DNA from: a virus
Lineage: Duplodnaviria > Caudoviricetes
IMG/VR virus record: IMGVR_UViG_3300028831_000505
Location: 76 to 64,075 of that record
Reading direction: 5' to 3' (one strand)
DNA: 64,000 nucleotides
Part shown: piece after piece, positions 817 through 50,688 of the stretch
Layout: each line of letters opens with the position of its first letter
How positions within the stretch are numbered: position 1 is the first letter of the stretch
The notes under the pieces: model-generated
Database searches by the model: none
Seen by the model: the letters and a program-made list of their open reading frames with translations, nothing else
Told to the model about the DNA's origin: nothing
Translations under genes and position numbers: made by a program

Positions 817-1106
817 GCCGCGACCCGTTGATTGACATTGCTCTGCGATCCTTCAACGGGTTGATTGACGAACTGAATGCCGAAGGCTTCCTGCTCAACA
901 ACTTGTATCAGGAGCCTGACGGAACATTCCGGGTTAACTTCGCAATGCCCGGGCGGCTGGGGTATGCCTATGGCCACGGCAACACCGTTGCCGAAGCGTT
1001 TGAGGAAGGGTTAGCCAATGCCGAAAAAGCCCGCAGGAAAAGCGCGTGTGTCGGTCCTCGCCATCGGGGCCGCCCACCTCGCAAACGAGAGCGGCCGAGG
1101 CTCTAG
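813..1106 (+). CDS. hypothetical protein ending in RERPRL motif
   Basis: ATG at 813 overlaps the upstream stop (ATGA); MSRDPLIDIAL...RKRERPRL. Confidence 0.65.
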   Translation: MSRDPLIDIALRSFNGLIDELNAEGFLLNNLYQEPDGTFRVNFAMPGRLGYAYGHGNTVAEAFEEGLANAEKARRKSACVGPRHRGRPPRKRERPRL

Positions 1107-1413
1107 GCCGGAGAGCTTGTTCCGTTTGTCCTGCCTGAGCTTGCCCAGGGGCGGTCGGTTTCTCAAGAAACAATCGGTGCATGAGGAAGGAGCTCTGTGG
1201 GCTCACACACTGGTCGTCACCAAGGCCCTTGGCGAGGCCATGCGCTGTGTCGACCGGTCTGAGCGCGATGCACGCCTGCGCGCGGACGAGATCTTCATTA
1301 CAGCCAATCATTTTATGTGGGCTCGGGGCCTCAAAATGTTTTATGAACGGGACTCACGTGGGGGCTACTCGCTTTTCGACATGCCTGATGAAAAAGATGC
1401 CCAAGTCACCTAG
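1018..1413 (+). CDS. hypothetical protein (true start uncertain, probably further downstream)
   Basis: ORF fills the gap between neighbours; the C-terminal half looks protein-like. Confidence 0.35.
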   Translation: MPKKPAGKARVSVLAIGAAHLANESGRGSRPESLFRLSCLSLPRGGRFLKKQSVHEEGALWAHTLVVTKALGEAMRCVDRSERDARLRADEIFITANHFMWARGLKMFYERDSRGGYSLFDMPDEKDAQVT

Positions 1414-1978
1414 CCTTGGAAAAATTGTGGGTGACTTGGCTTCGCTCAAGCCGGATGAACTGCGCGCGGTGCAGCAGGCCGCCGACGCTCTGCTTGAAGG
1501 TGAGGCCACGGCCACGTCTGCCGATGCGCCTGACCTTTATCACGCCATGCTGGCTGAACTGGAAACCATTGGGATGGTGCGAATCCCCTATCAGCGCTTC
1601 GCCAAGATGGCGGTGTTCAAATCCTGGAAAGTCCACTGCCCATCCACCGTAGAGTTTATAGACCGTCACTTTGGTAAGTTGAAGAAAACCATCCGTCATG
1701 CCCTTGAGCGCCACCTGTTTGAGTTGCTTATCGAAGACCTGCGTGCGCGCGGTGCCCCTGTGGCGCTCGGCGTCATCGTTACCAATATGGGGCGGCTGCC
1801 GGAAATCTTTGACGCGGCCTACCCCGGCTACATCGAGTCTGGACTGGCAATTCTTGTGCCAGACGCACTGTTGAGGAACCAACATGGACATGAAAAAGAG
1901 CACGGGTCCGTTCGCAGATCAAGTCGTGAAGGTCAAGTTCAAGGACCAGTTCGAGATCGAGGTCGTTCGCCTCGATAA
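1397..1978 (+). CDS. hypothetical protein
   Basis: MPKSPSLGKIVGDLASLKPDELRAVQQAADALL...; in-frame ATG within ORF 1181-1978. Confidence 0.6.
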   Translation: MPKSPSLGKIVGDLASLKPDELRAVQQAADALLEGEATATSADAPDLYHAMLAELETIGMVRIPYQRFAKMAVFKSWKVHCPSTVEFIDRHFGKLKKTIRHALERHLFELLIEDLRARGAPVALGVIVTNMGRLPEIFDAAYPGYIESGLAILVPDALLRNQHGHEKEHGSVRRSSREGQVQGPVRDRGRSPR

Positions 1979-2117
1979 AGGCACGCCGATTGAGCGCTAC
2001 GTCATTATGACAACCACCGATATTGGATCGGTCGACGCCGACCAGCGCACAACCGAACTCACGATGGGAAAGCGCGACTTCGACGACTATGTGCGCCAAC
2101 TGAACGCGCTGGTCTAG
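1884..2117 (+). CDS. hypothetical protein
   Basis: 77-aa ORF with GAGGA RBS and high-GC3 codons. Confidence 0.55.
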   Translation: MDMKKSTGPFADQVVKVKFKDQFEIEVVRLDKGTPIERYVIMTTTDIGSVDADQRTTELTMGKRDFDDYVRQLNALV

Positions 2118-2143
2118 GCCGCAAGGGGTCAGGGACTTTAGGG

Positions 2144-8913: not shown

Positions 8914-8991
8914 ACCCCCTTGCTTTTTCACGGGTTTTTGGGCTCCATGTTACATCAAAGTGATTTGCCACAATTTGGGATGGATTTGCGC

Positions 8992-9582
8992 ATGAGACGT
9001 TCGCGCCGCCGCAACCGTGCACCCTGGGTGAAGGTTGACATATGGGAACCGACCTGGAGCCCTGAGATCGTCGGTTGGTCCGTCAACTTCTACAACAGAA
9101 ACAAGTGGCGCTTCGACAGCAAGGACCGCTGTGATCCGGTCATGACGGTCGACGACCTGATGCAGGAAGCCTACATCATCTTTGAGCGCGTCCGCGCCAG
9201 CTACCCGCGCGTGATTGACCCGCGCCATTTCATGGCCCTTTACAAAACCTCCATCCAGAACGACATGACCGACAGGTCGCGGCTTGAGCGCAAACGGGAC
9301 GCAACCATTGAGGATTTGGGGGAGGATGCCTCCTCCGCGCTCGCGGGTCGTATGGACGACGAGAGTGGTTATCTGGCTGTGCTCCTCAGTGAGATGCCCC
9401 GAGAGGTTCAGTTGCTGATCGCCGGCATGCAAAGGGATGACGTTGCGGTGGCACTGCGCGAGCCCTATGAGAAGGACGAAGCCGGTGTCAGGAGCGAAAC
9501 CTTTGGAGAACGTCTGTGCCGTCTCATTGGCATTGACCCGGCAACCCGGCCGCTCCAACAGTTGCGGGAATTGCTTGCGTAA
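8992..9582 (+). CDS. putative RNA polymerase sigma factor-like protein (start uncertain)
   Basis: DDLMQEAYIIFERV and F...YKTSIQNDMTD resemble sigma region 2; LLSEMPREVQ resembles the start of region 4. Confidence 0.65.
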   Translation: MRRSRRRNRAPWVKVDIWEPTWSPEIVGWSVNFYNRNKWRFDSKDRCDPVMTVDDLMQEAYIIFERVRASYPRVIDPRHFMALYKTSIQNDMTDRSRLERKRDATIEDLGEDASSALAGRMDDESGYLAVLLSEMPREVQLLIAGMQRDDVAVALREPYEKDEAGVRSETFGERLCRLIGIDPATRPLQQLRELLA

Positions 9583-11270: not shown

Positions 11271-12227
11271 ATGCTCGTCAAGACCAAGGATAAGGCCAGC
11301 GGGAAGGTCCTCGTAACGTCCCGACCGCTCCTCATCGACTCCGTTCACGGCTACTTGCCCCCAGCCGTGGGGAAGGACTGGTTCGACACCACCACCACCA
11401 TCTGGCACGTGGATGAAATGATCCGCCGCCGCGTGCGTGACTGGCGCCGCCTCACCGGGGAGACCGGACATACGGGCGAGCGCACCGGCACCATGCGGGA
11501 AGACCACGATTCGGTCTACACCGGCACCCACAGCGTGTTCCCGATCCCGCTCATGGAGTGGATGCTTCTGCGCTACGGTGGGGGCAGGGGCGGCAAGGTG
11601 CTGGACGCCTTTGCGGGCGGGCCGCCGCGTGCGGTGTGCTCGGCATTCATGGGCTACGAGTACGTCGGGGTTGAACTGCGCAAGGAGCAGATCACCGAGA
11701 ACGTGGCCACAATCAAGCGCCTGAAACTTCCTGGCGTGGACTACATCCTTGGCGACGCCCGCTCCATGGTCGACTTGGTGGATCGCCCGGGTGACGGCTT
11801 TGATTTTGGCGCTACCTGTCCGCCCTATTTCAACCTCGAGGTCTACAGTGACCGCGATGACGATCTGAGCAATTACCAATACTACGATGAATTCGACAGA
11901 GCCATGAACGACGTGGCGCGTGGCTACGCCCGGTTGATGAAACCCGGTGCGTTCGTGTGTATGGTCGTCGGCAATTTTCGGGACAAGAAAACTGGCGAGC
12001 TAACTGATTTCAGATCAGACACAGTGAAGAACTTTCGTCGCAATGGCTTCAAATTCTGGCAGGAAATCATCCTTAGCAAGAACTTTGGCAGCGCAGCCAA
12101 ACGCAGCACCAATGCTTGGAAGGGCCTCAAGTTGGTTCCTCGCCACGAGTTCCTTTTGGTGTTCAGGTGGCCGGAGAGAAACACGGGGCACACCACTGCA
12201 CGCAAACGCGAAAGGGTCAGACTATGA
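11271..12227 (+). CDS. DNA amino-methyltransferase (N6A/N4C)
   Basis: SAM-binding VLDAFAGG, GVEL, GDA; catalytic TCPPYF; LMKPG; HEFLLVF. Confidence 0.88.
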   Translation: MLVKTKDKASGKVLVTSRPLLIDSVHGYLPPAVGKDWFDTTTTIWHVDEMIRRRVRDWRRLTGETGHTGERTGTMREDHDSVYTGTHSVFPIPLMEWMLLRYGGGRGGKVLDAFAGGPPRAVCSAFMGYEYVGVELRKEQITENVATIKRLKLPGVDYILGDARSMVDLVDRPGDGFDFGATCPPYFNLEVYSDRDDDLSNYQYYDEFDRAMNDVARGYARLMKPGAFVCMVVGNFRDKKTGELTDFRSDTVKNFRRNGFKFWQEIILSKNFGSAAKRSTNAWKGLKLVPRHEFLLVFRWPERNTGHTTARKRERVRL

Positions 12228-12649
12228 AAGAGTTTTCCCCGTCATGGAAGGAAGCCACCGCTGCGCTGATTGCCAAACTGGCGGCGTGGCGTGAGCCCGA
12301 CTTCCACAAGGACCAGCAGCTTTCAGACGAGGTGCTGATTGCCGATGGATGGGTTCCCACCCAAGACGCCGAATTCGCCGGCGGCGTGGCTTGGAGGCAC
12401 GGCCCCTTGACTGTCTCCGAAACTCAACGCCCCCACGTCCTCTATGACATGAGGCCAGCCTTGGGGGTGATCCCCCGCCTCTGCCAAGTCGTCCTGATGA
12501 TCCCACCCAGCCTGCCCATCGCCGACGTGAACGAAACCTGTTGCGTCCTGCAAGCAGCAGGCCGCACCGTGGGCTATGGCAGTTCGCTCAACCCCCAAAT
12601 TGCGGTGCTGATCGCAGCGCTGCGTGCAAAGGAGAGATTAGGTGAATAG
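12224..12649 (+). CDS. hypothetical protein
   Basis: ATGA overlap with the MTase stop. Confidence 0.55.
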   Translation: MKEFSPSWKEATAALIAKLAAWREPDFHKDQQLSDEVLIADGWVPTQDAEFAGGVAWRHGPLTVSETQRPHVLYDMRPALGVIPRLCQVVLMIPPSLPIADVNETCCVLQAAGRTVGYGSSLNPQIAVLIAALRAKERLGE

Positions 12650-13706
12650 GGCACAACTCGTCGACATCCTCGACATTCTCAAGCCAGCGCTTGCGGGCAA
12701 TACTCCCGTGCAGCTCTACACCTGCTACTGCTTCGTCAAGGACAAGGTCTACGCCTACAACGACCGTGTCGCGATTGTGGCCCCCTGCAAAGTCAACATG
12801 ACCTGCGCGCTGCACGGCGGCACCCTCTATGGCTGGCTCAAGAACAGCAATGCGGATGACGCCGACTTCGACCTCACCGGAAACGAGGTGGTGCTCACCG
12901 CGGGCAAGAGCAAGATCAAGCTGCCCTACCACGAGATGGGTGACCTCCTTTTCGAGGGGGTGCAGGACAAGGACAAGGACAACAAGTGGTTGGTGACCGC
13001 CGATGTCGATGAGGCGCTGCTCGCCGGCCTCGAGGTCTGTACTAGCACCACCAGCCGCGACCTCACACAGATGGCGCTGACATGCGTCTACCTGATGCCC
13101 GGCAAGCTGTCATACTTCTACTCGTCCGACAGCGACTCGCTCACTCGCTACTTGGTGACCGCCAAGGCAACCGAGCAAGGCACCTTTGCCATCCCCAACA
13201 ATTTCTGCGAGGAGGTGGTCAAGCTGGCCACCCGGTTCAAGGGTGAGGAGGGCCTTCTCAAGGCCACGTTGTCCGTCAACGACGACTGGGCGCGGGTGCG
13301 TTTCGAGAACGGCGTGACCGTGTGGGGGCGCATCCTGGACGTGCCTAGCCCCATTGACTTTGCGGCCATGCTCAAGTCGAAGGAAAAGGGCATGCCCCCC
13401 GCTGTGCCGCTGCCGCAGGGCCTGCAAGAAGCGTTGGCGCGGGCCTGTGTGCTGGCTGATCCTGAAAGCAAGCCCACGGAGTTCACCATCAAGGGCAACA
13501 AGCTTGGGATGTTCACCCAAAGTTCCATGGGTGAGGCCACCGAGTCGTTGCTCATCCGGGGTAAGCACCCCGACGCCGAGGCGTTGGTGAGCGCCCAGCT
13601 TGTGGCCCGTGCCATCAAGGCCTGCGACGAGTTCTCAATTGCACCCAGCGGCACGCTCTACCGTAACGGTAATTCCCTGCTACAGTTTGTCGCCAATATG
13701 GGCTAG
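12642..13706 (+). CDS. DNA polymerase sliding clamp (beta/DnaN-like)
   Basis: 354 aa; MNRAQLVDIL N-terminus, LTCVYL...SSDSDSL (cf. LNGV...ATDGHRL), GRILD..PID; located in the replication module. Confidence 0.72.
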   Translation: MNRAQLVDILDILKPALAGNTPVQLYTCYCFVKDKVYAYNDRVAIVAPCKVNMTCALHGGTLYGWLKNSNADDADFDLTGNEVVLTAGKSKIKLPYHEMGDLLFEGVQDKDKDNKWLVTADVDEALLAGLEVCTSTTSRDLTQMALTCVYLMPGKLSYFYSSDSDSLTRYLVTAKATEQGTFAIPNNFCEEVVKLATRFKGEEGLLKATLSVNDDWARVRFENGVTVWGRILDVPSPIDFAAMLKSKEKGMPPAVPLPQGLQEALARACVLADPESKPTEFTIKGNKLGMFTQSSMGEATESLLIRGKHPDAEALVSAQLVARAIKACDEFSIAPSGTLYRNGNSLLQFVANMG

Positions 13707-13734
13707 GGTGCCTTTGGGCGACTGAGCAAGGAAT

Positions 13735-14286
13735 TTGACCATGCTAACCTTGGGGCGTGACTGGACGGAGTTTTTTCGGCTAAGCAAACGCGAATACTTT
13801 GCTGACTTCTTTATTACCCCTCCGGTTACGGCCCTCATGGTTGGCCTTTCCCTGTACAAGGGGGCCAGCTTGCGGTGGCCATTATTCTTTGGCCTCGGAG
13901 TGTTGGCGTGGACCCTTTACGAATACCTCATGCATCGCTGGGGGCTGCACCAAGTGTGGGGGCTGCGTGTGCTGCATGCCATGCACCACAAGAACGACAG
14001 GGATTACATTGCCACGCACCCGGCCATAACCGTGGCCGCTTATATCGGCTTCTGGTTCATGTTTGGTGTGACCAGTAGCGCCTTCGCGGCCGGCTTCTCG
14101 GCGGGCTACGTGATCTACGCAGCGATGCACACGCTGTACCACTACACCACCATCCTGCCCGGCGATTGGTTGTTCGGGCTCAAGCGGCGTCACGCGTTGC
14201 ACCACCGGTTCGAAACTTACAATTTTGGTGTCTCAACCCCGCTCTGGGACATCGTTTTTCAAACCTCCTACCAACAGGGAAAATGA
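13735..14286 (+). CDS. fatty acid hydroxylase / sterol desaturase family protein
   Basis: His boxes EYLMHRWGLH, HAMHH, MHTLYH, HALHH plus NFGVSTPLWDIVF; multiple TM segments. Confidence 0.92.
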   Translation: MTMLTLGRDWTEFFRLSKREYFADFFITPPVTALMVGLSLYKGASLRWPLFFGLGVLAWTLYEYLMHRWGLHQVWGLRVLHAMHHKNDRDYIATHPAITVAAYIGFWFMFGVTSSAFAAGFSAGYVIYAAMHTLYHYTTILPGDWLFGLKRRHALHHRFETYNFGVSTPLWDIVFQTSYQQGK

Positions 14287-15242: not shown

Positions 15243-17930
15243 ATGGGTTTTTTGTTTACCACGCCTCAGCAGCAGCCCAAGGGGCCGCCCAAGCAGCGCA
15301 CGGGCCGCGCTGCGGGCGGCGTGGGGCCTAAAACGGCCGCCAGTGCCGCCACCTTGAACCGGCTGGGGTGTTCAGCCTGCCCGCTCAACGACGCCAAGGT
15401 CAATAGTCCCAAGATGCCGGCCTTCCTTCCTGTTAGGCCGTGTGACATTTACTTCCTTGCCGAGGCTCCGGGCGAAACAGAGGACCGTGAAGGGGAACCC
15501 TTAATTGGGAAGTCCGGCCAGTTGCTGCGCAGCCTCATCCCCAAGCGCTATGAAAATACCTGTGCTTACGACAACGTTGTGCGGACCCGCCCGCCCAAGA
15601 ACCGCGACCCCACCTGGGTTGAGGTCGAGTGTTGCCGAGGTCACCACACCAAAAGCATCGAGAAGGCCAAACCCCGGTTAGTAGTTGGCCTGGGGAAATT
15701 CTCCCTCAACGCCGTGCTAGGCTCCATGGATATGCAAGGCCTGCGCGGTCGTATGTTCGCGGTCAAGTTTGGCAACCACTCCTGTTGGTTCATGCCAACC
15801 TATCACCCGGCCTTTATCCTGCGGCAGGCCTATGACGACAAGAAGCCCCTGCTCTCGCGGATGGGCCATTGCTTCAAGATGGACATCAGGCGGGCCTTTG
15901 ATGTGCTGGACGGGCTCAAGCCCCCGCGCATCCAAACAGAGGCAAGCATCAGGGCCGACATCCTGACCTTTGACGGGTCCGAACCCGGCCACTTCGAGCG
16001 GTTAATGAACTTGCTCATCGTAGCGCAGCAGGTCCCCGAAAAATCAGTCGACTACGAGACCCAAGGCTTACGCCCGTACAGGAAGGACTCCGCAGTCCTG
16101 ACCTGTGCAATCAGCTATGACGACCCGGACGCGGGCGAGGCGCATTTCTCATTTGCCCTGGATCACCCCAAGGCCAAGTGGACCAAGGTGCAACGCAAGG
16201 CTATTGGGGCAAAGCTGCTCGAAATTCTTAGCGACGACACCTTCAAGGTTGCCCACAACGTACCGTTTGAGGTCGAGTGGTCCATCTTCATGTATGGCGC
16301 CGCCCATGTGCGTCACGGGGCTTGGGACTGCACAATGATGCAGGCTCACTTCCTGGACGAGCGCCGGGGCAAGCAGTGGCGTGACGATGACCGCCGAGCG
16401 GCCTATCAGGACCTTGACTTCCTCTGCCGCCAGTATTTTGGTGTGGGCTACAAGTCGTTCTTTAAGCTGAACAAAAAGAACATGGCCGGCGCTGATCTGG
16501 GCGAAACCCTCATCTATAACGCTGCCGATACCAAGGTCGCATTGTGGCTGCACCGCGTGCAAGTAGCCCTGCTGAAACGGCGTGGCCTCTATGACGCTTA
16601 CCTCGACTCGGTCCAGCGCCAGCCTGCCACGGCGTTGATGCAACACTTTGGAATACCCGTAAATCAGAAGGCCGTGGTACGCAACGGGAAACGTCTCAAG
16701 GCTGAGATTGAAGAGATCGAGGATGAGATAAACGACCTCAGGGTGGTGAAGGATTACACCCGGGACTATGGGGAGTTTAATCCGGGGTCGAACCCTGACG
16801 TTTTGAAGGTGTTCAAGGATTACCTCAAGCGGTCCGAGATAAAGGTTCCCAAGAAGTACCACAAGCCGGGGGAGAGTGAGTTTGAGTACTCGGTCGACGA
16901 GGCGGTGCTCAAGGAAATAGATCATCCCCTGGCCGAGCTGGTTCTTGCCTTTCGTAACCGCAGCAAATTGAAGTCCACCTATTGCGACGGGCTGGACATG
17001 CGTAACTACGACAACCCGCAGTACAAGAAACGGGTGGTCATCCACCGTGACGGGCTGGCTCACAGTTCGTTCAACATGACGTTCACTGAAACCGGCCGCA
17101 CCAGTTCTGACGATCCCAACCTTCAAAACTTCCCCAAACACAAAGACGCGTGGATACGCAACGAGATCTGGGCGCCCCCCGGCTATGTGCTGGTGGCGGC
17201 GGACTACAAGCAGCTTGAATTCTGCGCCGCGGCCTGTTGCAGCGGGGATAAAGTGCTGATCGACGCCGTTTGGAGCGGCTACGACGTGCACATGGATTGG
17301 GCTGAGCGGCTATCGGCGCGCTACCCGCAGGCGGTGGGCGGGCTCAAGTTCCGCAAGGACAAGGACGTAATGAAGGCGCTGCGCCAAAAGGTGAAAAACA
17401 AGCTGGTGTTCCCAGCTATCTTTGGCGCTCAGGACGACTCCATTGCGGGCTACCTCGATATGCCTGAGGACGTCATTGGCAAAGTCATGAACGACTTCTG
17501 GAGCATCTTCCACGGGATCAAGACGTGGCAAGATGAGATGATGCAAGGCTACTACGATGAGGGCTACGTCAGCACCATGAATGGGCGGTTGCGCTGGTAC
17601 CCGTTGAACCGCAACCAAGCGATCAACCACCCAGTGCAGGGCTCGGCCTGCGAAATCGTCTGCGACGGCATGACGCGCCTCTCGAAGCAGGCTGTGGAAA
17701 CCGAGCAGTGGCACATCCACCCGCGCATGAACATTCACGACGACCTGTCGTTCTTGATACCCGACGACAACAACCGGGTGTTTGAGGAGTCGGTTGAGAC
17801 CATCTACAAAGGAATGTTGAGTTGCCCCTACAAGTGGATCAACGTGCCGCTGGCCGTTGAGTTATCGGCCGGCGTTCACTGGGCAGAAATGGAAGCGTTT
17901 GGAAACTTCTCAAGCCACAAGGATCTCTGA
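15243..17930 (+). CDS. polA: family A DNA polymerase with N-terminal family-4 uracil-DNA glycosylase-like domain and 3'-5' exonuclease
   Basis: UDG4: CSACPL, AEAPGETED, GKSG, RPPKNRDP, TYHPAF; Exo: DYETQG, AHNVPFE, YNAAD; Pol: TGRTSSDDPNLQN, AADYKQLE, RQKVK..., NHPVQG, NIHDDL. Confidence 0.95.
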   Translation: MGFLFTTPQQQPKGPPKQRTGRAAGGVGPKTAASAATLNRLGCSACPLNDAKVNSPKMPAFLPVRPCDIYFLAEAPGETEDREGEPLIGKSGQLLRSLIPKRYENTCAYDNVVRTRPPKNRDPTWVEVECCRGHHTKSIEKAKPRLVVGLGKFSLNAVLGSMDMQGLRGRMFAVKFGNHSCWFMPTYHPAFILRQAYDDKKPLLSRMGHCFKMDIRRAFDVLDGLKPPRIQTEASIRADILTFDGSEPGHFERLMNLLIVAQQVPEKSVDYETQGLRPYRKDSAVLTCAISYDDPDAGEAHFSFALDHPKAKWTKVQRKAIGAKLLEILSDDTFKVAHNVPFEVEWSIFMYGAAHVRHGAWDCTMMQAHFLDERRGKQWRDDDRRAAYQDLDFLCRQYFGVGYKSFFKLNKKNMAGADLGETLIYNAADTKVALWLHRVQVALLKRRGLYDAYLDSVQRQPATALMQHFGIPVNQKAVVRNGKRLKAEIEEIEDEINDLRVVKDYTRDYGEFNPGSNPDVLKVFKDYLKRSEIKVPKKYHKPGESEFEYSVDEAVLKEIDHPLAELVLAFRNRSKLKSTYCDGLDMRNYDNPQYKKRVVIHRDGLAHSSFNMTFTETGRTSSDDPNLQNFPKHKDAWIRNEIWAPPGYVLVAADYKQLEFCAAACCSGDKVLIDAVWSGYDVHMDWAERLSARYPQAVGGLKFRKDKDVMKALRQKVKNKLVFPAIFGAQDDSIAGYLDMPEDVIGKVMNDFWSIFHGIKTWQDEMMQGYYDEGYVSTMNGRLRWYPLNRNQAINHPVQGSACEIVCDGMTRLSKQAVETEQWHIHPRMNIHDDLSFLIPDDNNRVFEESVETIYKGMLSCPYKWINVPLAVELSAGVHWAEMEAFGNFSSHKDL

Positions 17931-19581: not shown

Positions 19582-20106
19582 ATGGCGTCAGCCAAACCGT
19601 CATTCAACATCGACGAGTTCCGCGCGTACCTTGCCATCGACAAGCACCGTCTCGACGAAGAGCTGATGGCCCAACCCGGGTTGTTCTTCAAGGTGAGCGA
19701 CGAGTATGCGCTGGCTTGCGCTGACCGTGACACGGCCAAGGATGATCTTGCCCGCCTCACCGCCGAGATCTATCCCAAGGTCAAGGCCAACCTTGAGAAG
19801 GCCGGCAAAGCTACCGAGGCAGCCATTCAGGCGGGCATTGCGCTGGACAAGAAGCACCAAGCCGCCGTCAAGGTGTACTCGGACGCGCGCTACTGGGCCG
19901 ACCTCACCCTTGCGCTCAAGGAAGCCTTCATCCAGCGCAGTTACATGCTGCGGGAAATGGCCCATCTGTTCTCGGCCAACTACTTCGACCGCGCTGTGGT
20001 TGAAGGCACCGGGCGGCGGGGTGAGTCCTTGAAGGCCGACGCCATCAAGGAGCAGATGTCCACTCGGCGTGACACCAATCGTTCCCGTCCACGCCTGAAC
20101 GACTAA
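19582..20106 (+). CDS. UvsY-like recombination mediator protein
   Basis: Helical protein with LAIDKHRLDEELMAQPGLF...TEAAI...KEAFIQRSYML pattern; lies near SSB and RecA. Confidence 0.6.
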   Translation: MASAKPSFNIDEFRAYLAIDKHRLDEELMAQPGLFFKVSDEYALACADRDTAKDDLARLTAEIYPKVKANLEKAGKATEAAIQAGIALDKKHQAAVKVYSDARYWADLTLALKEAFIQRSYMLREMAHLFSANYFDRAVVEGTGRRGESLKADAIKEQMSTRRDTNRSRPRLND

Positions 20107-20505: not shown

Positions 20506-21897
20506 ATGGCGAAGCGCGAATTCAAATACAAGCCCCGCTCGGCGGAGGACGTCCGTGAGCGGGCCAACCAGCAGTCGGGCAACTTCGACCGGTTCATGCC
20601 CGACAACGTGAAGATGTTCAAGCCGCGCGACGGCAAGAACATCATCCGTGTCCTTCCGCCCACTTGGGACGGCGCCAAGCACTTTGGCTACGAACTGTGG
20701 GTGGTGTATGGCGTGGGGGCGGACAACCAGTCCTACCTCTCGCCATCCAAGATGAGGCAGGAGGACGATCCAATCGAGGAGATGCGCAGGGAACTCACCG
20801 AGGACCGTAACGAGAAGGCCGCCAAGTCGCTGACCCCCAAAAAGCGCGTCGGCATCTACCTGATCGACCGCATGGCCGAAGACGAGGGCGTGCAGTTTTG
20901 GGCCATGCCTTGGACCCTCGACCGCGACATTGCCAACCGCTGCTATGACGAGGACACCAAGGACGTCATCATGATCGATGACCCCGACAATGGCGCCGAC
21001 GTCAGGTTTTACAAGGAAGGCACCGGCCGCAACACCGAATACAATGCGGCTAGGATCACGGTGCTTAAGGACTCGCCCCTCAGCGACGACAAGCGCACCA
21101 TGAACGACTGGCTTGCCTACGTCGAAGACAACCCCATTCCCGAGAAGCTGGTGTACTACCCCTATGACCACCTGAAACGGGTGGTCGCCGGCACCGCCAC
21201 CAAGAAGCCCGACGAGGATGACGCCGACGTGCTTGGGCGCGGCCGTGCTAGCCGCGAGGAAGAGCGTGGGCGTGGCGGGCGCGGTGGCCGCGAGGAGGAG
21301 CGGGGCCGGGGCACCCGTGACCGGGGCGACGAGCGCGGCGGGCGCAGCCGTGAGCCGGAGCCTAATCCCGAGGAAGATCGTGGCACACAGCGCGGCGGCC
21401 GTGGCGGCCGGGACGACCCGCGTGACGATGACCGGCGCGGCGGTGGTGAGCGCAGCCGCGCCCGCCCGCGCCTCGACGAGCCGGACAACGACTCTGAGCC
21501 GGAACCGGAACCCGAGGATCGGGGCCGGGGGCGCACCCGGCGCGAGGAGCCCGAGCGGGGCCGTGATCGCGATGATCGAGGAAGTGACAGGGGCGAGGAA
21601 CGCGGCGGCAGCGAGCGCAGCCGCACCCGTGCCCGTCTCGAGGACGACCCCGCCGACGATGACCGCGGTGGTGGACGGGAACGCAGCCGGAGCCGCGACG
21701 ATGATCGCGGCGAGGACCGGGGCGGGCGCCGTGAGCGTAGCCGTGCCGAGCCCGAGGAAACGGAGCGCGAGGCGCGTGACGATGACCGGCGGGGTGGCCG
21801 TGATCGTGACCGTGACCGCGAGGATGACCGGGGCGGGGGCAAGGGGGGAAGTGTGCTTGACCGCATGCGTGCCCGGCGCCGTGACCCGGCCGATTGA
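20506..21897 (+). CDS. gp32-like single-stranded DNA-binding protein with a long R/D/E/G low-complexity tail
   Basis: FKPRDGKNIIRVLPP, IDDPDNGADV...EGTGRNTEY typical of phage SSB cores; GAGGA RBS; located between UvsY-like and RecA. Confidence 0.75.
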   Translation: MAKREFKYKPRSAEDVRERANQQSGNFDRFMPDNVKMFKPRDGKNIIRVLPPTWDGAKHFGYELWVVYGVGADNQSYLSPSKMRQEDDPIEEMRRELTEDRNEKAAKSLTPKKRVGIYLIDRMAEDEGVQFWAMPWTLDRDIANRCYDEDTKDVIMIDDPDNGADVRFYKEGTGRNTEYNAARITVLKDSPLSDDKRTMNDWLAYVEDNPIPEKLVYYPYDHLKRVVAGTATKKPDEDDADVLGRGRASREEERGRGGRGGREEERGRGTRDRGDERGGRSREPEPNPEEDRGTQRGGRGGRDDPRDDDRRGGGERSRARPRLDEPDNDSEPEPEPEDRGRGRTRREEPERGRDRDDRGSDRGEERGGSERSRTRARLEDDPADDDRGGGRERSRSRDDDRGEDRGGRRERSRAEPEETEREARDDDRRGGRDRDRDREDDRGGGKGGSVLDRMRARRRDPAD

Positions 21898-22080: not shown

Positions 22081-23124
22081 ATGGCCAAAGCTGCCCCCGC
22101 TCCCAAACGCCAACGGGTCCGCCTCGAGGACGAGGCAAAGCAAGCCAATCACTACCTTGTGCAGCTTGAGGGGAAGGAGGTCGAATTCTTCTCCTCAGGG
22201 TGCGCCATCCTCGACTGCATTCTTAGCGGGGGTTGGGCCAGTGGCCGGGTGATCAACGTCGTTGGCGACAAGTCAACCGCCAAGACGGGCCTTGCAACCG
22301 AGGCCCTGATCAACTTCAAGGTCAAGTACCCGAAGGGATTTGCCAAGTATCAGGAATGCGAAGGCGCCTACGACTTCCAGTATGCCAAGGCCATGGGCCT
22401 ACCGCTGGACGACATCGACTTTGGTGAGGAACCGCTTCTCACCGTTGAGGCTTTTGCCGAGGACCTCGAGCGTTTCACCGACCAGTGTGAGCAGGCCGGG
22501 CAGCCGGGCTTATATGTGCTGGATTCGCTTGACTCCCTGAGCGACAAGGCCGAGGGCAAGCGCAAGGTGGGCGACGCCAGCTTTGGCATGGCCAAGCCCA
22601 AGCTGCTGTCCGAAATGTTTCGCAAGCTGTGCAAGCGCATGGAGGCAGCCAAGGTCACCCTGCTGGTGATCTCCCAGGTGCGCGACAACATCAACGCCTC
22701 TTTTGGTGAGAAGCACACGCGGTCAGGTGGCAAAGCGCTGGACTTCTACGCTAGCCAAGTTGTGTGGCTGGCGCGCATCAAGAACCTCAAGCGCACCATC
22801 CAGCACGTCGAGCGCGTCTATGGTTCGCGCATCAAGGCCAACTGCAAGAAAAACAAGGTTGGCATCCCGTTCCGCACTTGCGAATTCGATTTCATATTTG
22901 GCTTTGGCGTGGATGATCTGAACGCCAGCCTTGATTGGCTCGACGAGGTGCGGCGCATGGACGCGCTGGGGCTCAAGGGCGCCGACCTCAAGGAGTACCT
23001 TGGGGCCGTGGCACTGCTAAAAACCGACGAGTACGCCCAGGAACGGGCGGCGTTGGCCAAGGTGGTGTTCACCGAGTGGGTCAGGATCGAGAAAACGTTC
23101 CTTCCAACCCGGACCAAATACTGA
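22081..23124 (+). CDS. recA: RecA/UvsX-like recombinase
   Basis: SSGCAILD..L.GG...GR, GDKSTAKT, VLDSL, ISQVRDNI, SGGKALDFYAS, KKNKVG.PFR. Confidence 0.93.
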   Translation: MAKAAPAPKRQRVRLEDEAKQANHYLVQLEGKEVEFFSSGCAILDCILSGGWASGRVINVVGDKSTAKTGLATEALINFKVKYPKGFAKYQECEGAYDFQYAKAMGLPLDDIDFGEEPLLTVEAFAEDLERFTDQCEQAGQPGLYVLDSLDSLSDKAEGKRKVGDASFGMAKPKLLSEMFRKLCKRMEAAKVTLLVISQVRDNINASFGEKHTRSGGKALDFYASQVVWLARIKNLKRTIQHVERVYGSRIKANCKKNKVGIPFRTCEFDFIFGFGVDDLNASLDWLDEVRRMDALGLKGADLKEYLGAVALLKTDEYAQERAALAKVVFTEWVRIEKTFLPTRTKY

Positions 23125-26664: not shown

Positions 26665-28522
26665 CTTTGATGGCATAGTGATTGAGAACTTCCGCTCCTT
26701 TGCGGGCGTTCACAAATTTGATTTCCCCAAAGAGCCCGGCCTTTACCAGATGACCGGGGTAAACGAGCGTGCCCCACGGCTGGGCGCCAACGGGGTAGGG
26801 AAGACCTCATTCATCGACGCCATTTGCTGGGTCCTGTTTGGCCGCACCACCCGCTACCTGCGGGGCGCTGACGTGGTGACGTGGGGCGCCCGCAAATGTG
26901 CCGTGACGCTGCGGATGCGGGTAGGGAGTAAAACCCTCACCGTGAAGCGGACGCATGGCCCTATCAGCCTCACAGTGACAGACAAGGCCGGTGCGCGGCA
27001 GGTTGAGCAGCATGAGTTGGACGGCCTGATCCGGCTTAGCCAAAAGGCCTTTCTCCTTTCGGTCATCCTTCCCCAGTTTGGTGACTCGTTTTTTGACCTG
27101 GGGGCTACCGACAAGCTCAACCTGTTCTCCGACGTGGCCAACCTTGAGCATTGGGTAGCCCTCAGCAAGAAGGCGGACACCGCTGCCCTATCCTTGGCCG
27201 GCGACATTGGCTCCCTCGACATCGAGATTGAACGCGCGGATGAGCGCCTCAACGTTCTTGCGGCGGATATCACTGACCTGACCCAACGCTCGCGTGGCTT
27301 TGGCCGTGAACAGGACGAGCGCATTGGCAGCGCCCGCGCGGCGCTTAGCCTTGCAGACCAGCAACTCGAACGCTCCAAAGAGAACCTCGAGGCCGTCACT
27401 ACAGCCCTTGTGGAGTTGGATGGAAAGATAGCCGAATATGCCGCGGGTCTCGGTGAAGCTGAGGAAGACTTGGCGCAGGCTACCACCGCACGTACCGCTG
27501 TGGTGGATAAGATAGCTGGTTTGGACAGTGATTTGAAAGAACTTGTCCAATACATGGACGACGTCCGCGCCCTGAAAGCTATCTGCCCCACCTGCCACCA
27601 ACAGGTTGACGCCCGGCACGTCAGGTCCCTCCTTGCAAAAGCCGACAGGGATATAGAGAAGATCGAAAAGGGCATTGCTGCCCTGAGCCCACAGGCCGAG
27701 ACGCTGGCCGGGGAGCTACGGCAAATAGCCGCTGATCGCCAAACGCTCAAGGTTGCTTTGGAGGGTTTCCAACGCAGCCGCTCGAACCTTACAATCGAGA
27801 AGGGAAGGCTCGAGTCCGACGTGAACGGTTATTCTGGCACCGTCCGGGACCACGAGGAAAACATCAAAGCCATAAGGCGCGAGGCCAACCCCTATACTCA
27901 GATGATTGGCACAAAGCGCGCTGAGATTGGTGAACTCGAAGACTTATTGGTTGAGGCGCGGGCCGAGCTGGCGCGGCTGAACCGCAAGCATGACGCGGTA
28001 ACCTATTGGGTCGGCGGCTTCAAGCGGGTGCGGCTGTTCGTGATAGAGCGCGCCCTCAAAACCCTGGAAGTCGAGATCAACAATCACCTGACCGAACTGG
28101 GCTTGGTGGATTGGTCGGTAGAGCTGGACGTTGAGCGTGAGAACCAAAAGGGTGGGGTCACCAAGGGCCTTGTGGTCCTAATCAAGGGGCCGGGTAACGA
28201 GAAGCCTGTAAAATGGGAAGCTTTCTCAGGCGGTGAGGTCCAGCGCCTGCGGCTGGCGGGTGATTTTGCCCTCAGCAACCTCATCCTCGAGCAGGCCGGG
28301 CTCAACAGCAAAATTGAGTTCCACGACGAGCCCAGCGAGCACCTGAGCCGTGAGGGCCTGAATGATCTTGTGGAGGCGCTGTACGAGCGCGCCATGAATA
28401 CTGGCAAGCAGATTTGGCTGGTTGACCACAGCGTTATTGACTATGGGGAATTTGCCGGCAAGTTGCTGGTCATTAAGGACAAGGCCGGCTCACACCTGCG
28501 TTATGACGAGGGGCTGAAATGA
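26657..28522 (+). CDS. sbcC: SbcC/Rad50-like (T4 gp46-like) ABC ATPase
   Basis: ENFRSF, GANGVGKTS, coiled coil with CPTC zinc hook, signature FSGGE, HDEP, VDH. Confidence 0.92.
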   Translation: MLDFDGIVIENFRSFAGVHKFDFPKEPGLYQMTGVNERAPRLGANGVGKTSFIDAICWVLFGRTTRYLRGADVVTWGARKCAVTLRMRVGSKTLTVKRTHGPISLTVTDKAGARQVEQHELDGLIRLSQKAFLLSVILPQFGDSFFDLGATDKLNLFSDVANLEHWVALSKKADTAALSLAGDIGSLDIEIERADERLNVLAADITDLTQRSRGFGREQDERIGSARAALSLADQQLERSKENLEAVTTALVELDGKIAEYAAGLGEAEEDLAQATTARTAVVDKIAGLDSDLKELVQYMDDVRALKAICPTCHQQVDARHVRSLLAKADRDIEKIEKGIAALSPQAETLAGELRQIAADRQTLKVALEGFQRSRSNLTIEKGRLESDVNGYSGTVRDHEENIKAIRREANPYTQMIGTKRAEIGELEDLLVEARAELARLNRKHDAVTYWVGGFKRVRLFVIERALKTLEVEINNHLTELGLVDWSVELDVERENQKGGVTKGLVVLIKGPGNEKPVKWEAFSGGEVQRLRLAGDFALSNLILEQAGLNSKIEFHDEPSEHLSREGLNDLVEALYERAMNTGKQIWLVDHSVIDYGEFAGKLLVIKDKAGSHLRYDEGLK

Positions 28523-30134: not shown

Positions 30135-30440
30135 ATGCGGCATGACAACAGCGCGGGTACTGGGAGGGGCCGCAACGCCCTAGAACTATTTGATATCCCC
30201 AGCAGCTATCGATGCCACTGGGTCTACGGCGACATCAGGCTCAAGACGGCCTACTGGTGTGGGCAGCCCGTAGCACAGCCGCTGAAAAGCGGGCACTGCG
30301 ATGGGCCATGGTGTGCGAAGCACCGAGCGGTAGTTTACCCACAGTCAGCCGGGGCGCCCCTCGCACCACGGGCGTCCAACCGTTTCAGGCTGGACGCCCG
30401 TGTGTATCCCAAAGTGAAAAGGAAGCGCTTCCGGCTTTAG
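30135..30440 (+). CDS. GcrA cell-cycle regulator C-terminal domain-like protein
   Basis: LELFDI...CHWVYGD...YWCGQP...GPWCAKHRAVVY matches the GcrA CTD pattern L..L....C.WP.GD....FCG......PYC..H...Y. Confidence 0.72.
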   Translation: MRHDNSAGTGRGRNALELFDIPSSYRCHWVYGDIRLKTAYWCGQPVAQPLKSGHCDGPWCAKHRAVVYPQSAGAPLAPRASNRFRLDARVYPKVKRKRFRL

Positions 30441-48909: not shown

Positions 48910-49353
48910 CTACCGCACCCTTTTCTTCGGGATGGCAGCCAGTTCGGCTTTGATGTAGGTGTCGTACTCGATACGAGCGGATTCCGCGCCCTGCTCGAGG
49001 TACTTGTAGCCCCGGCCCTCGGCGTTCTCGTGAACGATGAGTGCGTAGGTGACGATGCCAAGTGGGGCATTGGGTGTGGGGGTCACAGGGTTATCGATGC
49101 CGCCAAAAGTAACCTTCCCACGCACGCCCTTGGGCGTAACCTCAGCGCTGGCCGCGCCACTCTGCGAGAGGCCGCCGTACTGCACCGGAACGAACGGGTA
49201 AGTGTGATTGAGCACAATTTGAGCGGCGCCCTGAAAGATGCGAAAAGCCTCGGCGTTCACGACCTTTGCGAAGTCGTTGTAGGCCGTCAGGCACAGGTTC
49301 AGGGCACGGCTACCACCGATCCCCTTCGCACCAATGTTTACCCGAGTCGCCAT
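48910..49353 (-). CDS. tail completion / neck protein (HK97 gp10-like)
   Basis: VPVQYGGL..S, YALIVHE, KYLE motifs. Confidence 0.72.
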   Translation of the reverse strand: MATRVNIGAKGIGGSRALNLCLTAYNDFAKVVNAEAFRIFQGAAQIVLNHTYPFVPVQYGGLSQSGAASAEVTPKGVRGKVTFGGIDNPVTPTPNAPLGIVTYALIVHENAEGRGYKYLEQGAESARIEYDTYIKAELAAIPKKRVR

Positions 49354-49685
49354 CAAAGATAGGCCTTCCGTTCAAATACCTCGGCCACAAGGCCGGGTAT
49401 TTTCCTGAACTCCTTGACGTCGAAAGCCCCCTTCAACGCCTTGGGGTCAGCCTGATTTGTTTCCCCCAAGTAGAGGTAATCCCCGGCAGCAACGTCCTGA
49501 TCCAAGAACACCCGCGCCCGGCTTTGCACCCGCACGCCCTCAGCGGTGACGATCTCAGTTGACCGCTCTTCCCAACGGCACGAGATCACGGCTGGGGCCG
49601 CAAAGGTGTCGGCGCCGAAGCTGTCTGCCGCTCCCTTCGACCACCATGTGGCCTTCTGAACAAGACCCATTGTTAAGAAGGTCAT
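49353..49685 (-). CDS. head closure / head-tail adaptor
   Basis: ATWW....DSFG...F.AP..I.CRWE. Confidence 0.7.
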   Translation of the reverse strand: MTFLTMGLVQKATWWSKGAADSFGADTFAAPAVISCRWEERSTEIVTAEGVRVQSRARVFLDQDVAAGDYLYLGETNQADPKALKGAFDVKEFRKIPGLVAEVFERKAYL

Positions 49686-50353
49686 CAGTAGGGCCTCGTG
49701 TAGTATCTGATGACGTTGGCCACGGAATTTGGGTAGCCGGCAAGGGCAGAGTCCGCCTTTCCCCTATCCCAACTAACATCGGTATCTCCGATCCGGTAAC
49801 GGGTCACGGAGTTGTCGATGCCGTTTGCATCCGACCGATAGTCGGCTTTAACGATGGACGTAATGGCCCGCTCAAGATCATACGGGAAGTCTTGTTTCAG
49901 TTCATTGGTGGAGTTGGGCCGGGTGATGTACCCACCCTCATAGGTGAATTCCCAATCGTCCTTGAAGAAGTTGGACTCGGCGCTGTCAGGGGTGTTCCAA
50001 GGAACGGTGGTGGTTATCCACCCCCCGTCACGCTGCACAATCCCCGCATCCTTGTCGATCACTCGATACTCGTCGGCGCCAATAAGCGCTTCCTTGTATT
50101 TGACCGCACTGATGCTGATGATTGGGGTAACGCTGAGAAGGATGTTCGGGGTGCCCTTTCCGGGAAGGGTCTCCTTGTAAATCTGGCGAACCCAATTGCG
50201 GCCGGTGATCCTGATAACCGTAGCGGTTACGGCCAAAATCAGGTCGGTGAGCGTCGTGTCCTGACCGCTGCCTGAGATGCCAAGCTGGGCCTTGACGGTA
50301 TCCAGCTTTAGCAACTCAGGTTTTGCGGCCGGTGTTACAATCTCAATTGCCAC
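49685..50353 (-). CDS. head-tail connector (gp6-like)
   Basis: LDTVKAQLGI....D..L..LI...T......GR....Q, YEGGY, P.DLERA. Confidence 0.8.
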   Translation of the reverse strand: MAIEIVTPAAKPELLKLDTVKAQLGISGSGQDTTLTDLILAVTATVIRITGRNWVRQIYKETLPGKGTPNILLSVTPIISISAVKYKEALIGADEYRVIDKDAGIVQRDGGWITTTVPWNTPDSAESNFFKDDWEFTYEGGYITRPNSTNELKQDFPYDLERAITSIVKADYRSDANGIDNSVTRYRIGDTDVSWDRGKADSALAGYPNSVANVIRYYTRPY

Positions 50354-50373
50354 GGCTCACCTGCCAGTCGTCC

Positions 50374-50688
50374 TCAGTCGAGCTTGGGGCGGTCCCGGCC
50401 ACGGCCTACGGGCTTGGCGTCGCCGGGCTTGCCCCCATCACCCTTGGCGTCCTTGCCGGCGCCGCCAGCGGCGGGGCCAGCACCCTTGTCCGGGCCACCC
50501 GGACCTTGTGGATTGGGGGTGCCCTTACCGGGCTCGGTAGTCATTTGCCGGTTGGTGTACACCGCTTTTCCTCCATTTACGAGACGATCTGCTTCCGCTG
50601 GAGTGAAGCCGGCCCTGTCCCCCTTGATCCAGGGGGCATTCGACCGGATGAACTCCACTTGAACCCGTGGGCCTTTTCGCGCCGCCAT
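50374..50688 (-). CDS. hypothetical head-associated protein
   Basis: MAARKGPRV...GDRAGF..AEA.RLV..GKA; Gly/Pro tail ending RDRPKLD. Confidence 0.6.
   Translation of the reverse strand: MAARKGPRVQVEFIRSNAPWIKGDRAGFTPAEADRLVNGGKAVYTNRQMTTEPGKGTPNPQGPGGPDKGAGPAAGGAGKDAKGDGGKPGDAKPVGRGRDRPKLD

Follow-up and report, generated by a model that had tools for sequence, protein, structure and literature searches.

About ten unrelated proteins encoded in a 64,000-nucleotide stretch of a Caudoviricetes genome (we call this whole stretch the window) bear the same short, arginine-rich, leucine-ending peptide at or near their chain ends. The evidence supports a genuine terminal motif that is under selection at the peptide level on otherwise unrelated proteins, and we found no description of such a tag in the literature. 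We give an even chance to the proposal that the tag is a docking peptide patterned on the N-terminus of the phage recombinase, with one shared putative partner in the replication-recombination core; both the binding itself and its target are what we infer from the pattern.

Translation agreed with all ten sites (10/10) listed in a preliminary description of this DNA, and codon comparison bore out its remark that different copies use different codons. Because the codons vary between copies, the match lies at the peptide level. On the plus strand (coordinates of copies at the chain end include the stop codon), the first copy, RKRERPRL (1080-1106), closes a 97-amino acid ORF (813-1106) that gave no match in a family search and has an AT-hook-like RGRP just upstream of the tag. 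An N6/N4 DNA methyltransferase (11271-12227) ends in RKRERVRL (12201-12227), which sits on an appended extension of about 16 residues that is absent from homologues. RSRPRLND (20080-20106) ends a 174-amino acid protein in the UvsY position, encoded between the clamp loader and SSB genes. The gp32-like SSB (20506-21897, plus strand) carries two internal copies, RARPRLDE (21457-21480) and RTRARLED (21622-21645), which belong to one repeat unit in its R/G/D/E-rich disordered tail. In the RecA/UvsX recombinase (22081-23124), the N-terminal copy KRQRVRLEDE (22105-22134) precedes the core, within an extension modelled as coil. A PDDEXK_15 resolvase-like nuclease (24008-24562) ends in (RLS)MRVRL (24536-24562), and SbcD (25134-26141) has an internal HRFRLED (26004-26024) in a linker ahead of its C-terminal helices, a position occupied by basic variants in three relatives. 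The first arginine is missing in both of these copies (S-M-R-V-R-L at the resolvase end, V-H-R-F-R-L-E-D in SbcD). A 101-amino acid Cys/Trp-rich ORF (30135-30440) combines NRFRLD (30381-30395) with a C-terminal RKRFRL, the pair spanning 30381-30440. Two copies are on the minus strand: RDRPKLD (50374-50397), at the C-terminus of a small head-module protein (50374-50688), and RQRGKLD (52937-52960), at the end of an S78 prohead protease plus scaffold-like protein (52937-54565). The protease copy and NRFRLD are additions to the earlier set. The names 'UvsY-like' and 'GcrA-like', given earlier to the 174- and 101-amino acid proteins, found no sequence support in Pfam or the PDB. Gene set and order are T4-like (clamp loader, UvsY-position protein, gp32-like SSB, UvsX/RecA, nuclease, SbcDC), and a beta-clamp homologue is encoded at 12642-13706 on the plus strand (profile versus PDB, E = 1e-27).

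Enrichment was measured in a set of 90 proteins, with gene calls and start codons taken from our own codon-usage caller; from 91 initial calls, three were dropped as dubious (23383-24084 minus, 13680-13787 minus and 51537-51647 plus) and two were added (24008-24562 and 23620-24003). R-x-[RK]-L plus zero to two residues closes 7 of the 90 proteins, compared with a mean of 0.096 (maximum 3) in 2000 whole-protein shuffles and 0.13 (maximum 3) in 20000 shuffles of the last 30 residues; seven terminal copies were reached in 0/2000 and 0/20000 shuffles, respectively. R.R.[RK]L with an acid or the chain end directly after it occurs 9 times versus 0.155 expected (maximum 3 in 2000 shuffles). Shuffling, which the preliminary description had named as a check, thus revealed terminal enrichment over the arginine-rich background. 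An origin by chance, or as a by-product of an arginine-rich, high-GC proteome, could appeal to the 41 six-frame occurrences of R.R.[RK]L (11 of them inside called genes, 9 of these 11 in acid/end context) and to the motif pattern, which was picked after the data were seen. This explanation is already disfavoured and we judge it highly implausible, as shuffles never approached the observed terminal counts, the tag is kept in orthologues, and other phage loci carry it on 0.2-0.9% of ORFs versus 7.8% here (15/1683 ORFs from related replication loci, of which the resolvase and adjacent genes make up the majority, and 2/1098 in unrelated head-module loci).

A looser pattern was then applied to whole records, with 2000 shuffles each and with gene calls and start sites of our own. 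Observed copies numbered 8 versus 0.32 expected in the window, a count that 0/2000 shuffles reached, 4 versus 0.48 in relative G007 (4/2000) and 3 versus 0.21 in G005 (2/2000). G006 has three C-terminal and three N-terminal copies versus 0.20 expected of each (4 and 5/2000 shuffles), G008 has one C-terminal copy versus 0.18 (338/2000), and enrichment in G001 is only marginal (56 and 73/2000). Two complete motif-poor relatives from another branch, G011 (2 versus 0.43) and G013 (1 versus 0.69), showed no enrichment. Internal motif density is similar across eight genomes (0.18-0.49 per 1000 residues), and the excess is therefore terminal.

The tag had been described as phage-specific, a claim that did not survive comparison: five partial relatives hold one to six terminal copies apiece, and a related basic peptide is present at the RecA/UvsX N-terminus in 38/67 distinct related loci. 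Retention in homologues is real for some families, which keep the tag at the same terminus, but patchy overall. Among orthologue families of related phages it is kept at the recombinase N-terminus, the resolvase C-terminus, the N-terminus of a 142-174-amino acid family encoded upstream of the terminase genes, and the C-terminus of three small families. R-x-R-[LI] closes 12/119 database homologues of the resolvase, and the tag closes 8/80 resolvases in related loci. No homologue in related loci ends with the tag for the methyltransferase (0/13), the UvsY-position protein (0/70), SSB (0/77) or SbcD (0/61), and the relatives' tails of the UvsY-position protein, SSB and head protein are merely Arg/Lys-rich. 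The form of the RecA N-terminus and the resolvase tail are weakly associated (Fisher p = 0.016 and 0.13, statistics that ignore relatedness), and in the motif-poor branch the basic peptide is found on the recombinase alone. The families common to all six motif-rich genomes are confined to replication and recombination (SbcD, RecA, clamp loader, polymerase, clamp and SSB), which narrows the candidates for a phage-encoded receptor to these six families.

Across the six motif-rich genomes, the 29 terminal copies give the consensus K-R-x-R-[V/I/E/P]-[R/K]-[L/I], followed by the chain end or Asp/Glu; eight of them are N-terminal. Position -3 is arginine in 29/29 copies although the search pattern admitted lysine there, and position -5, which the pattern left free, is basic in 20/29. 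The acid after leucine is not an independent finding, because the search pattern included it, and the RecA proteins of G007 and G008 have Lys or Ile where this acid would be expected. AlphaFold2 models show the tails to be flexible: pLDDT falls below 50 at residues 178-184 of the resolvase, and RecA residues 1-30 are modelled as coil (block pLDDT 56-68). With its low-confidence tails, unrelated carriers, orthologue retention and enrichment, the tag has the general attributes of a short linear motif (SLiM), which is brief, lies in disordered sequence, turns up on unrelated proteins and stays conserved in orthologues as its flanks change.

These properties suggest how a docking peptide might work. 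It would comprise [K/R]-R-x-R-[V/I/E/P/A/F]-[R/K]-[L/I] followed by a free C-terminal carboxylate or by Asp/Glu, displayed in flexible termini or linkers. The UvsX/RecA-type recombinase may supply its prototype, an N-terminal peptide that occurs widely among these replication-recombination modules. Other DNA-handling proteins would then have gained look-alike tails, independently here and in a second branch of relatives; the putative acquirers include the resolvase-like nuclease, SbcD, SbcC, the UvsY-position protein, the SSB tail and the methyltransferase, together with small regulators, a protein beside the terminase genes and the small head-module protein. All of these tails could share a single acidic docking site on the receptor. 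Because basic and hydrophobic residues alternate, the peptide may bind as an added beta-strand that buries its Val/Leu face, and a positively charged group on the receptor would read the carboxylate of the chain end or of Asp/Glu. As receptor, a protein common to all these phages is most likely. The gp32-like SSB core would be our first guess, ranked so because of analogy with the T4 gp32 hub, with the beta-clamp second and the RecA core third. That SSB and RecA bear the motif themselves is unusual for a receptor and counts against docking. The docking or targeting signal postulated in the preliminary description thus stands in part: selection, extreme termini, low-confidence coil tails and same-end orthologues fit it, but the tag is neither confined to this phage nor evenly retained.

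T4 offers the closest precedent for docking on SSB. One account (PMC11551737) describes gp32 as an SSB-centred hub that works through short terminal peptides to recruit its partners (UvsX, UvsY, gp59, Dda, helicase loaders and nucleases), and describes its basic N-terminal peptide (B-domain) as binding the core of a neighbouring gp32. The likeness lies in the basic terminal peptide and in the T4-like gene set and order of this phage; the difference is that in T4 the shared peptide is the hub's own acidic tail, to which each partner presents a surface of its own. In this phage one basic peptide is common to many partners, and the polarity of the putative docking would therefore be reversed. A second parallel is with BRC repeats, which mimic the oligomerisation peptide of RAD51. 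Partners in this phage would likewise copy a peptide of the recombinase's own N-terminal region, one that lies just upstream of a conserved (S/N)-Y-F element; unlike BRC repeats, the tag is also carried by non-recombination proteins, and a RecA-RecA contact through the peptide is hypothetical.

The preliminary description put first a new clamp-binding motif for the phage's own beta-clamp. On this reading DNA enzymes, and perhaps transcription and packaging factors, would use the clamp as a tool-belt in the style of the T4 clamp. The clamp is a true DnaN homologue, is encoded in all six motif-rich genomes and never bears the tag itself (0/31 homologues), and clamp ligands characteristically take the form of terminal peptides on many DNA enzymes (see PMC11139829). 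As with the beta-clamp motif and the PCNA PIP-box, a short motif occupies the extreme termini of many unrelated DNA enzymes in a phage that encodes a beta-clamp. We nevertheless think this unlikely. Canonical clamp motifs (QL[SD]LF or QxxL(x)F, a Gln with a Leu/Phe-rich penta- or hexapeptide after it) occupy a hydrophobic cleft between domains II and III of the clamp. Known clamp ligands are all hydrophobic or aromatic, whereas the tag is arginine-rich with a single leucine and has neither the glutamine nor the aromatic/hydrophobic pair of those motifs; Gln-Leu-x-Leu-Phe of the QL[SD]LF type occurs in 0/12 tag copies. Among the 90 proteins, a regex scan for Q-[LIVMA]-x-[LIVM]-[FLW] within 15 residues of a terminus yielded only two weak matches in other small ORFs, plus the hydrophobic M-G-F-L-F start of the polymerase, and no PIP-box Q-x-x-[LIVM]-x-x-[FYW]-[FYW] lay within 15 residues of a chain end. 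The family A polymerase is untagged, and its hydrophobic termini, conserved within the clade (M-G-F-[FL]-F at the start, F-x-S-x-K-D-[LVI] at the end), are more obvious clamp handles, and the motif-poor branch has the same clamp with the basic peptide on its recombinase only. The tag could instead be a capsid-targeting (cargo-loading) peptide that copies a coat-binding C-terminal tail of the protease/scaffold, so that carriers would be packed in proheads and travel with the DNA on delivery. Terminal peptides that address proteins to the capsid interior are known, among them the HK97 protease tail and encapsulin cargo peptides. PMC7411985 covers a T4 capsid targeting sequence and a proposed role for the protease C-terminus. 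Like these signals, the tag is one terminal peptide on unrelated proteins, and the protease and head-protein ends share its layout at the same terminus. A chain end of G-[RK]-[LIV]-D is conserved in the protease family (21/66 database homologues, 29/52 IMG/VR loci), and in the window only the protease has it, the head ORF having Pro in place of Gly and the ten replication-side copies ending otherwise. As the protease tail is family-wide, it is probably a feature separate from the tag. Packaging as cargo is in our view very improbable: carriers are mostly replication proteins, no head-module family is common to the six motif-rich genomes, and a homologue of this protease was not found in G001 or G005-G009, all of them partial records. 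An S78-family match is likewise absent from complete motif-poor G010, G011 and G013 and from partial G012; G014 has one. Genes neighbouring the protease in 80 loci are without the tag save one weak case, the Gly at -2 and terminal Asp that are fixed in the protease family are missing from most replication-protein copies, and eight of the terminal copies in the motif-rich genomes are N-terminal.

Could the tails be generic basic anchors for DNA, another polyanion or the acidic SSB tail, with no dedicated receptor pocket and a resemblance that is simply a composition optimum? All carriers except the protease handle or contact DNA, a basic triplet pattern lies near the end of 18/70 UvsY-position proteins of relatives, K/R clusters close 11/15 head-protein homologues, and the tag in the 97-amino acid ORF adjoins its RGRP. 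Because the relatives' tails are merely Arg/Lys-rich, a generic polyanion-binding role is possible, though we rate it quite unlikely: it leaves unexplained why Arg at -3 never varies, why Leu/Ile is fixed, why placement is strictly terminal and why an acid or the chain end comes directly after Leu, and shuffles that preserve local composition never reach the observed count. A signal for a host AAA+ unfoldase/protease (ClpX-type) or chaperone, setting carrier lifetime or remodelling, is also improbable. MuA-type ClpX tags do resemble the tag in having basic residues before an aliphatic C-terminal residue, and degrons can lie at either protein terminus. The internal copies in the SSB tail and SbcD linker, with Asp/Glu replacing the chain end, are easier to reconcile with a binding pocket than with a threading signal, and the recombinase N-terminal peptide is conserved across phages of 30-62% G+C, whose hosts are presumably varied; the partner is therefore more likely to be phage-encoded.

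Other arginine-rich signals resemble the tag less closely. Substrates of VirB/D4 type IV secretion bear an arginine-rich consensus, confined to the C-terminus, that a VirD4-type coupling ATPase reads. PMC8525350 describes this C-terminal signal on unrelated proteins, DNA-binding ones included, much as the tag is common to unrelated proteins here. The difference is that 8/29 terminal tag copies are N-terminal, and no coupling-protein-like ORF was present among the annotated window proteins (the subset of ORFs scanned). Copies with Arg-x-Arg-Pro-Arg recall the AT-hook core R-G-R-P, but have S/A/E/D-R-P, or V/A/F, instead of G-R-P; the glycine is missing at its position in all but one neighbouring sequence, the single true RGRP being that upstream of the tag in the 97-amino acid ORF. 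The basic-x-basic-Leu-Asp layout also recalls the c-Myc-type monopartite nuclear localisation signal. With its tail, tape-measure and HK97-type head genes, though, the virus is expected to infect a prokaryote, a host that lacks importins.

A broader form of the docking proposal is possible but more doubtful. In it, the recombinase N-terminus (K-R-x-R-hydrophobic-R/K-L plus carboxylate) would have given rise to a terminal 'address code' that brings proteins of replication, recombination, DNA modification, transcription and packaging, and even of the head, together on a single hub. The hub might be SSB-coated DNA, where the long Arg/Gly/Asp/Glu-rich SSB tail with its two copies could give a condensate-like DNA factory, and new clients would join by gaining a tail of 6-8 residues, as would have occurred separately in two or more branches. 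Should the tag be a docking code, the methyltransferase, which gained it on a 16-residue extension, would show how easily evolution can recruit clients.

For annotation, the tag singles out small ORFs that are functionally linked and lack an assigned family. A docking code would also offer a simple, testable handle on the spatial organisation of phage DNA transactions: one peptide could pull down the hub, one two-residue mutation could uncouple each client, and the 8-residue tail would be usable as a portable recruiting tag. If the proposal is true, these phages possess a class of hub motif whose chemistry is the reverse of that in known classes, basic rather than hydrophobic or acidic.

A short arginine-rich peptide, K-R-x-R-[V/I/E/P]-[R/K]-[L/I] followed by the chain end or by Asp/Glu (hereafter the tag), recurs at protein termini in the window, and every site listed for it in the preliminary description translates as claimed there. 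The match was also correctly placed at the peptide level: codons vary from copy to copy, and the tag is therefore not a DNA repeat. Genes were called with a self-trained codon-usage model and curated to 90 proteins (three calls dropped, two added). Seven of these have R-x-[RK]-L at the C-terminus, with no more than two residues after it: a 97-aa ORF, the methyltransferase, the UvsY-position protein (a 174-aa ORF between the clamp loader and the single-stranded DNA-binding protein, SSB), the resolvase, a Cys/Trp-rich 101-aa ORF, a small head ORF (50374-50688, minus strand) and the prohead protease, which had escaped the earlier listing. In the test for terminal enrichment that had been proposed as a check, whole-protein shuffles averaged 0.096 ends of this kind (never more than 3 in 2000), and shuffles of the last 30 residues only, which preserve local Arg richness, averaged 0.13 (maximum 3 in 20,000). 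The fuller pattern R-x-R-x-[RK]-L, with an acid or the chain end immediately after Leu, was observed 9 times, compared to 0.155 expected from shuffles. R.R.[RK]L matched 41 times across the six frames of the window; the Arg-rich background that was feared as the source of the signal is thus visible, yet it yields no terminal copies in real genes. Ends of the same type occurred on 15 of 1683 ORFs in related replication loci, mostly resolvases and their neighbours, and on 2 of 1098 ORFs in unrelated head-module loci.

The plus strand carries a T4-like replication-recombination block that encodes a DnaB-type helicase, a second helicase, a primase, an N6/N4 methyltransferase, a beta-clamp homologue (profile match to PDB DnaN, E = 1e-27), a family A polymerase with a UDG-like N-domain (15243-17930), an AAA+ clamp loader, the UvsY-position protein, a gp32-like SSB (20506-21897), a RecA/UvsX recombinase, a PDDEXK_15 nuclease (annotated as resolvase-like), SbcD and SbcC. 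The minus strand carries a siphovirus-type structural block with an S78 protease that has a long scaffold-like C-terminal part (52937-54565), an HK97-type capsid protein, an adaptor, a tail tube, a tape measure, and J-like and fibre proteins. A plus-strand ORF lies upstream of the protease gene, as does a cluster on the minus strand that includes two glycosyltransferase-like genes (57303-58028 and 58038-58697), and the right arm holds a YpsA/SLOG-family protein and an HNH endonuclease (59054-59542 and 60320-60751). Neither terminase nor portal was found in the window (no Terminase_6N match and no ORF of fitting size), consistent with an incomplete record. The 64,075-base viral record, of which the window is all except the first 75 bases, is classed as linear and ~68% complete (CheckV); the G+C content of the window is 56-62%. 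Within record bases 1-75, the first ~50 bases resemble a sequencing-library adapter rather than phage DNA, so this end of the record is an assembly or library artefact and not a genome terminus.

Relatives were reached via RecA, the resolvase and the protease. RecA identity to any relative was at most 54-58% (best 54% in IMG/VR and 47% in metagenomes), a DNA search of the phage collection returned a single irrelevant 99-base match, and a contig scan produced five distant MAG contigs, with no clue to host. Three database contigs (53,826, 55,756 and 112,649 bases) appear to combine a resolvase ending in R-V-R-L with a protease ending in G-R-L-D, a pairing based on equal sizes alone; an IMG/VR scan with protein P0085 did not recover them.

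Among 67 distinct related loci, 38 encode a RecA that begins with a basic peptide containing [RK]-x-[RK]-[LI], only a few residues before a conserved (S/N)-Y-F element; in 12 of the 38, Asp/Glu comes directly after the peptide. This distribution marks the RecA copy as an old family feature. Resolvases end in R-x-R-[LI], typically R-R-V-R-L, in 12 of the 119 database homologues listed, and the tag closes this protein in 8 of 80 IMG/VR loci. Retention in homologues, suggested earlier as a check on the motif, was partial: it held for RecA, the resolvase and four small families, and failed for the methyltransferase (0/13), the UvsY-position protein (0/70), SSB (0/77) and SbcD (0/61), none of which is closed by the tag in related loci, where their tails are simply Arg-rich.

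Gene calling and the shuffle test were applied likewise to the whole records of five partial relatives with the tag (G001 and G005-G008) and of two complete relatives from the larger, motif-poor branch (G011 and G013). C-terminal copies number 4 in G007, compared to 0.48 expected (reached by 4 of 2000 shuffles), and 3 in G005, compared to 0.21 (2 of 2000); G006 carries the tag at three C-termini and three N-termini, compared to 0.20 expected at either end (4 and 5 of 2000). The result for G001 was marginal (2 and 2 copies versus ~0.28; 56 and 73 of 2000 shuffles), that for G008 was not significant (1 copy versus 0.18), and the motif-poor G011 (2 versus 0.43) and G013 (1 versus 0.69) showed no terminal excess. 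Internal pattern density is alike across all eight genomes. Orthologous families, resolvase and RecA included, hold the tag at the same terminus: a 142-174-aa family encoded two genes upstream of the large terminase has it N-terminally in three genomes, and three small families have it C-terminally in two genomes each. In SbcD the copy is part of a linker, and basic variants stand in this linker in G006, G007 and G008. The window's replication proteins resemble those of the motif-poor branch more closely than those of G001 and G005-G008, and the tag thus seems to have spread to many proteins more than once. In SbcC of G006 (26004-27848) and G007 (60251-62137), D-R-E-R-[AV]-[KR]-L-E-L-D precedes the C-P-T-C zinc hook by a few residues; this element is absent from the window's SbcC.

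The consensus is drawn from 29 terminal copies in the six motif-rich genomes (the window and the five tagged relatives). Position -3 is Arg in all 29, though the search pattern permitted Lys, and position -5, which the pattern left unconstrained, is basic in 20. Most C-terminal copies terminate at Leu/Ile and the remainder run on with Asp/Glu, an acid or chain end that the search pattern demanded and that is not independent evidence. Leu is followed by a stop in four window copies, by Asp/Glu in seven and by Asn-Asp in one; in the RecA of G007 and G008 the acid is replaced by Lys or Ile. We infer that a carboxylate is read at the position after Leu. Structure models predict flexible tails: pLDDT is < 50 over the final seven resolvase residues, and RecA residues 1-30 are modelled as coil, with block pLDDT values of 68, 56 and 61. 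The methyltransferase copy is carried on a 16-residue extension past the end of its homologues. The SSB tail (residues ~235-465, ~230 residues) is low-complexity, R/G/D/E-rich and internally repetitive, and its leucines are confined to the two tag copies and the final dozen residues. Its composition is reminiscent of phase-separating proteins.

Some copies are probably something other than the tag, namely those of the protease and the small head ORF, the first copy in the 101-aa ORF, and DRSRLE in the protein encoded at 8920-9582. The protease family has its own C-terminal signature, G-[RK]-[LIV]-D, in 21 of 66 database homologues and 29 of 52 IMG/VR protease ORFs (loci L100-L175), and genes adjoining the protease in the IMG/VR loci do not carry the tag. 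Scaffold and protease C-termini reportedly bind coat protein; by analogy, the G-[RK]-[LIV]-D end would probably be a coat-binding tip. The small head ORF has the exact layout of the protease, R-x-R-x-K-L-D-end. A word-based search matched only this ORF itself, and an exhaustive search turned up 15 distant homologues that all lack the tag: 11 end in generic Lys/Arg clusters and the rest in other ways. Members of this family (50374-50688; P0189-P0203) have one to three repeats of a ~40-residue unit, V-x-F-x-R...P-Y...G-E-x-A-G-F, and a disordered, mostly basic tail after the repeats. By eye, NRFRLD of the 101-aa ORF can be aligned with an element that is conserved in relatives' true GcrA proteins, beyond their Cys/Trp-rich domain; the homology of this ORF to GcrA had no BLAST support, the Cys/Trp pattern being matched by eye only. 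DRSRLE falls in a conserved helix-like block. A true GcrA-family protein is encoded in G006 (L204:10494-11042; PF07750, E = 2e-22), with homologues in G007, G008 and G011, and in all four genomes its gene adjoins terminase genes. Its presence is a hint that phages of that branch infect Alphaproteobacteria. In G006 the portal (L204:12501-14576) has an Acb1-like (anti-CBASS) domain as its fusion partner (Pfam E = 1.3e-37).

Together, the data fit a docking peptide for one shared partner. Terminal peptides that dock onto a hub are well known as a kind; the novelty, as far as can be told, lies in this class of sequence, in the reversal of its polarity, and in how widely it is distributed, on proteins of replication, recombination, methylation, regulation and the head. 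We found no description of such a motif in a literature search at the abstract level on phage linear motifs, UvsX/UvsY/gp32 and Arg-rich tails, with subscription journals largely outside its coverage. The only families common to all six motif-rich genomes are SbcD, RecA, clamp loader, polymerase, clamp and SSB. A phage beta-clamp, a partner suggested in the preliminary description, is thus a possible receptor, but the chemistry of the tag is unlike that of every known clamp ligand, and the polymerase has its own clade-conserved hydrophobic start, M-G-F-[FL]-F, and C-terminus, F-x-S-x-K-D-[LVI], both candidate clamp handles. Among the universal families in related loci, the tag was never found on clamp, loader or polymerase. 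No head family is common to the six genomes, and this makes the capsid a less likely receptor for the tag across the clade; in relatives, several of whose records are fragmentary, a search for this protease and the S78 family returned only weak matches, in G003 and G014. In the motif-poor branch the basic peptide is on the recombinase alone, and the original receptor should therefore work with the recombinase, as SSB, the UvsY-position protein, RecA itself or DNA.

Other routes to a receptor were less productive. The 8920-9582 protein is the sole family present in five of six motif-rich and neither of the two motif-poor genomes, and was set aside as not an obvious hub. It is always encoded directly after the primase (relatives L201:4941-5687, L203:8962-9642, L195:4569-5219 and L206:14563-15174) and resembles sigma-70 regions 2 and 4 by eye only; it has no Pfam match, and phrog_35491 was its only match. 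Branch-specific acidic columns gave nothing convincing, and at most of these columns the window proteins match the motif-poor branch. A four-chain co-fold of clamp, RecA core (30-347), SSB core (1-235) and the 35-residue UvsY-position tail, with a separate alignment for each of the first three (score 0.00, mark 0.32) and in a design unlike the tool's calibration, counts neither for nor against binding.

Gene sharing, recombinase-only carriage, the tag-free clamp, loader and polymerase, and the example of T4 gp32, taken together, tentatively place the SSB core first among the candidate receptors of the docking peptide, with the clamp and the RecA core next. In T4, gp32 recruits UvsX, UvsY, gp59 and Dda; a basic peptide at its own N-terminus binds the adjacent gp32 (PMC11551737). 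If the RecA core were the receptor, tagged proteins would act by BRC-like mimicry of the recombinase's own N-terminal peptide. With the SSB core as receptor, the two copies in the SSB tail would serve self-association or auto-inhibition.
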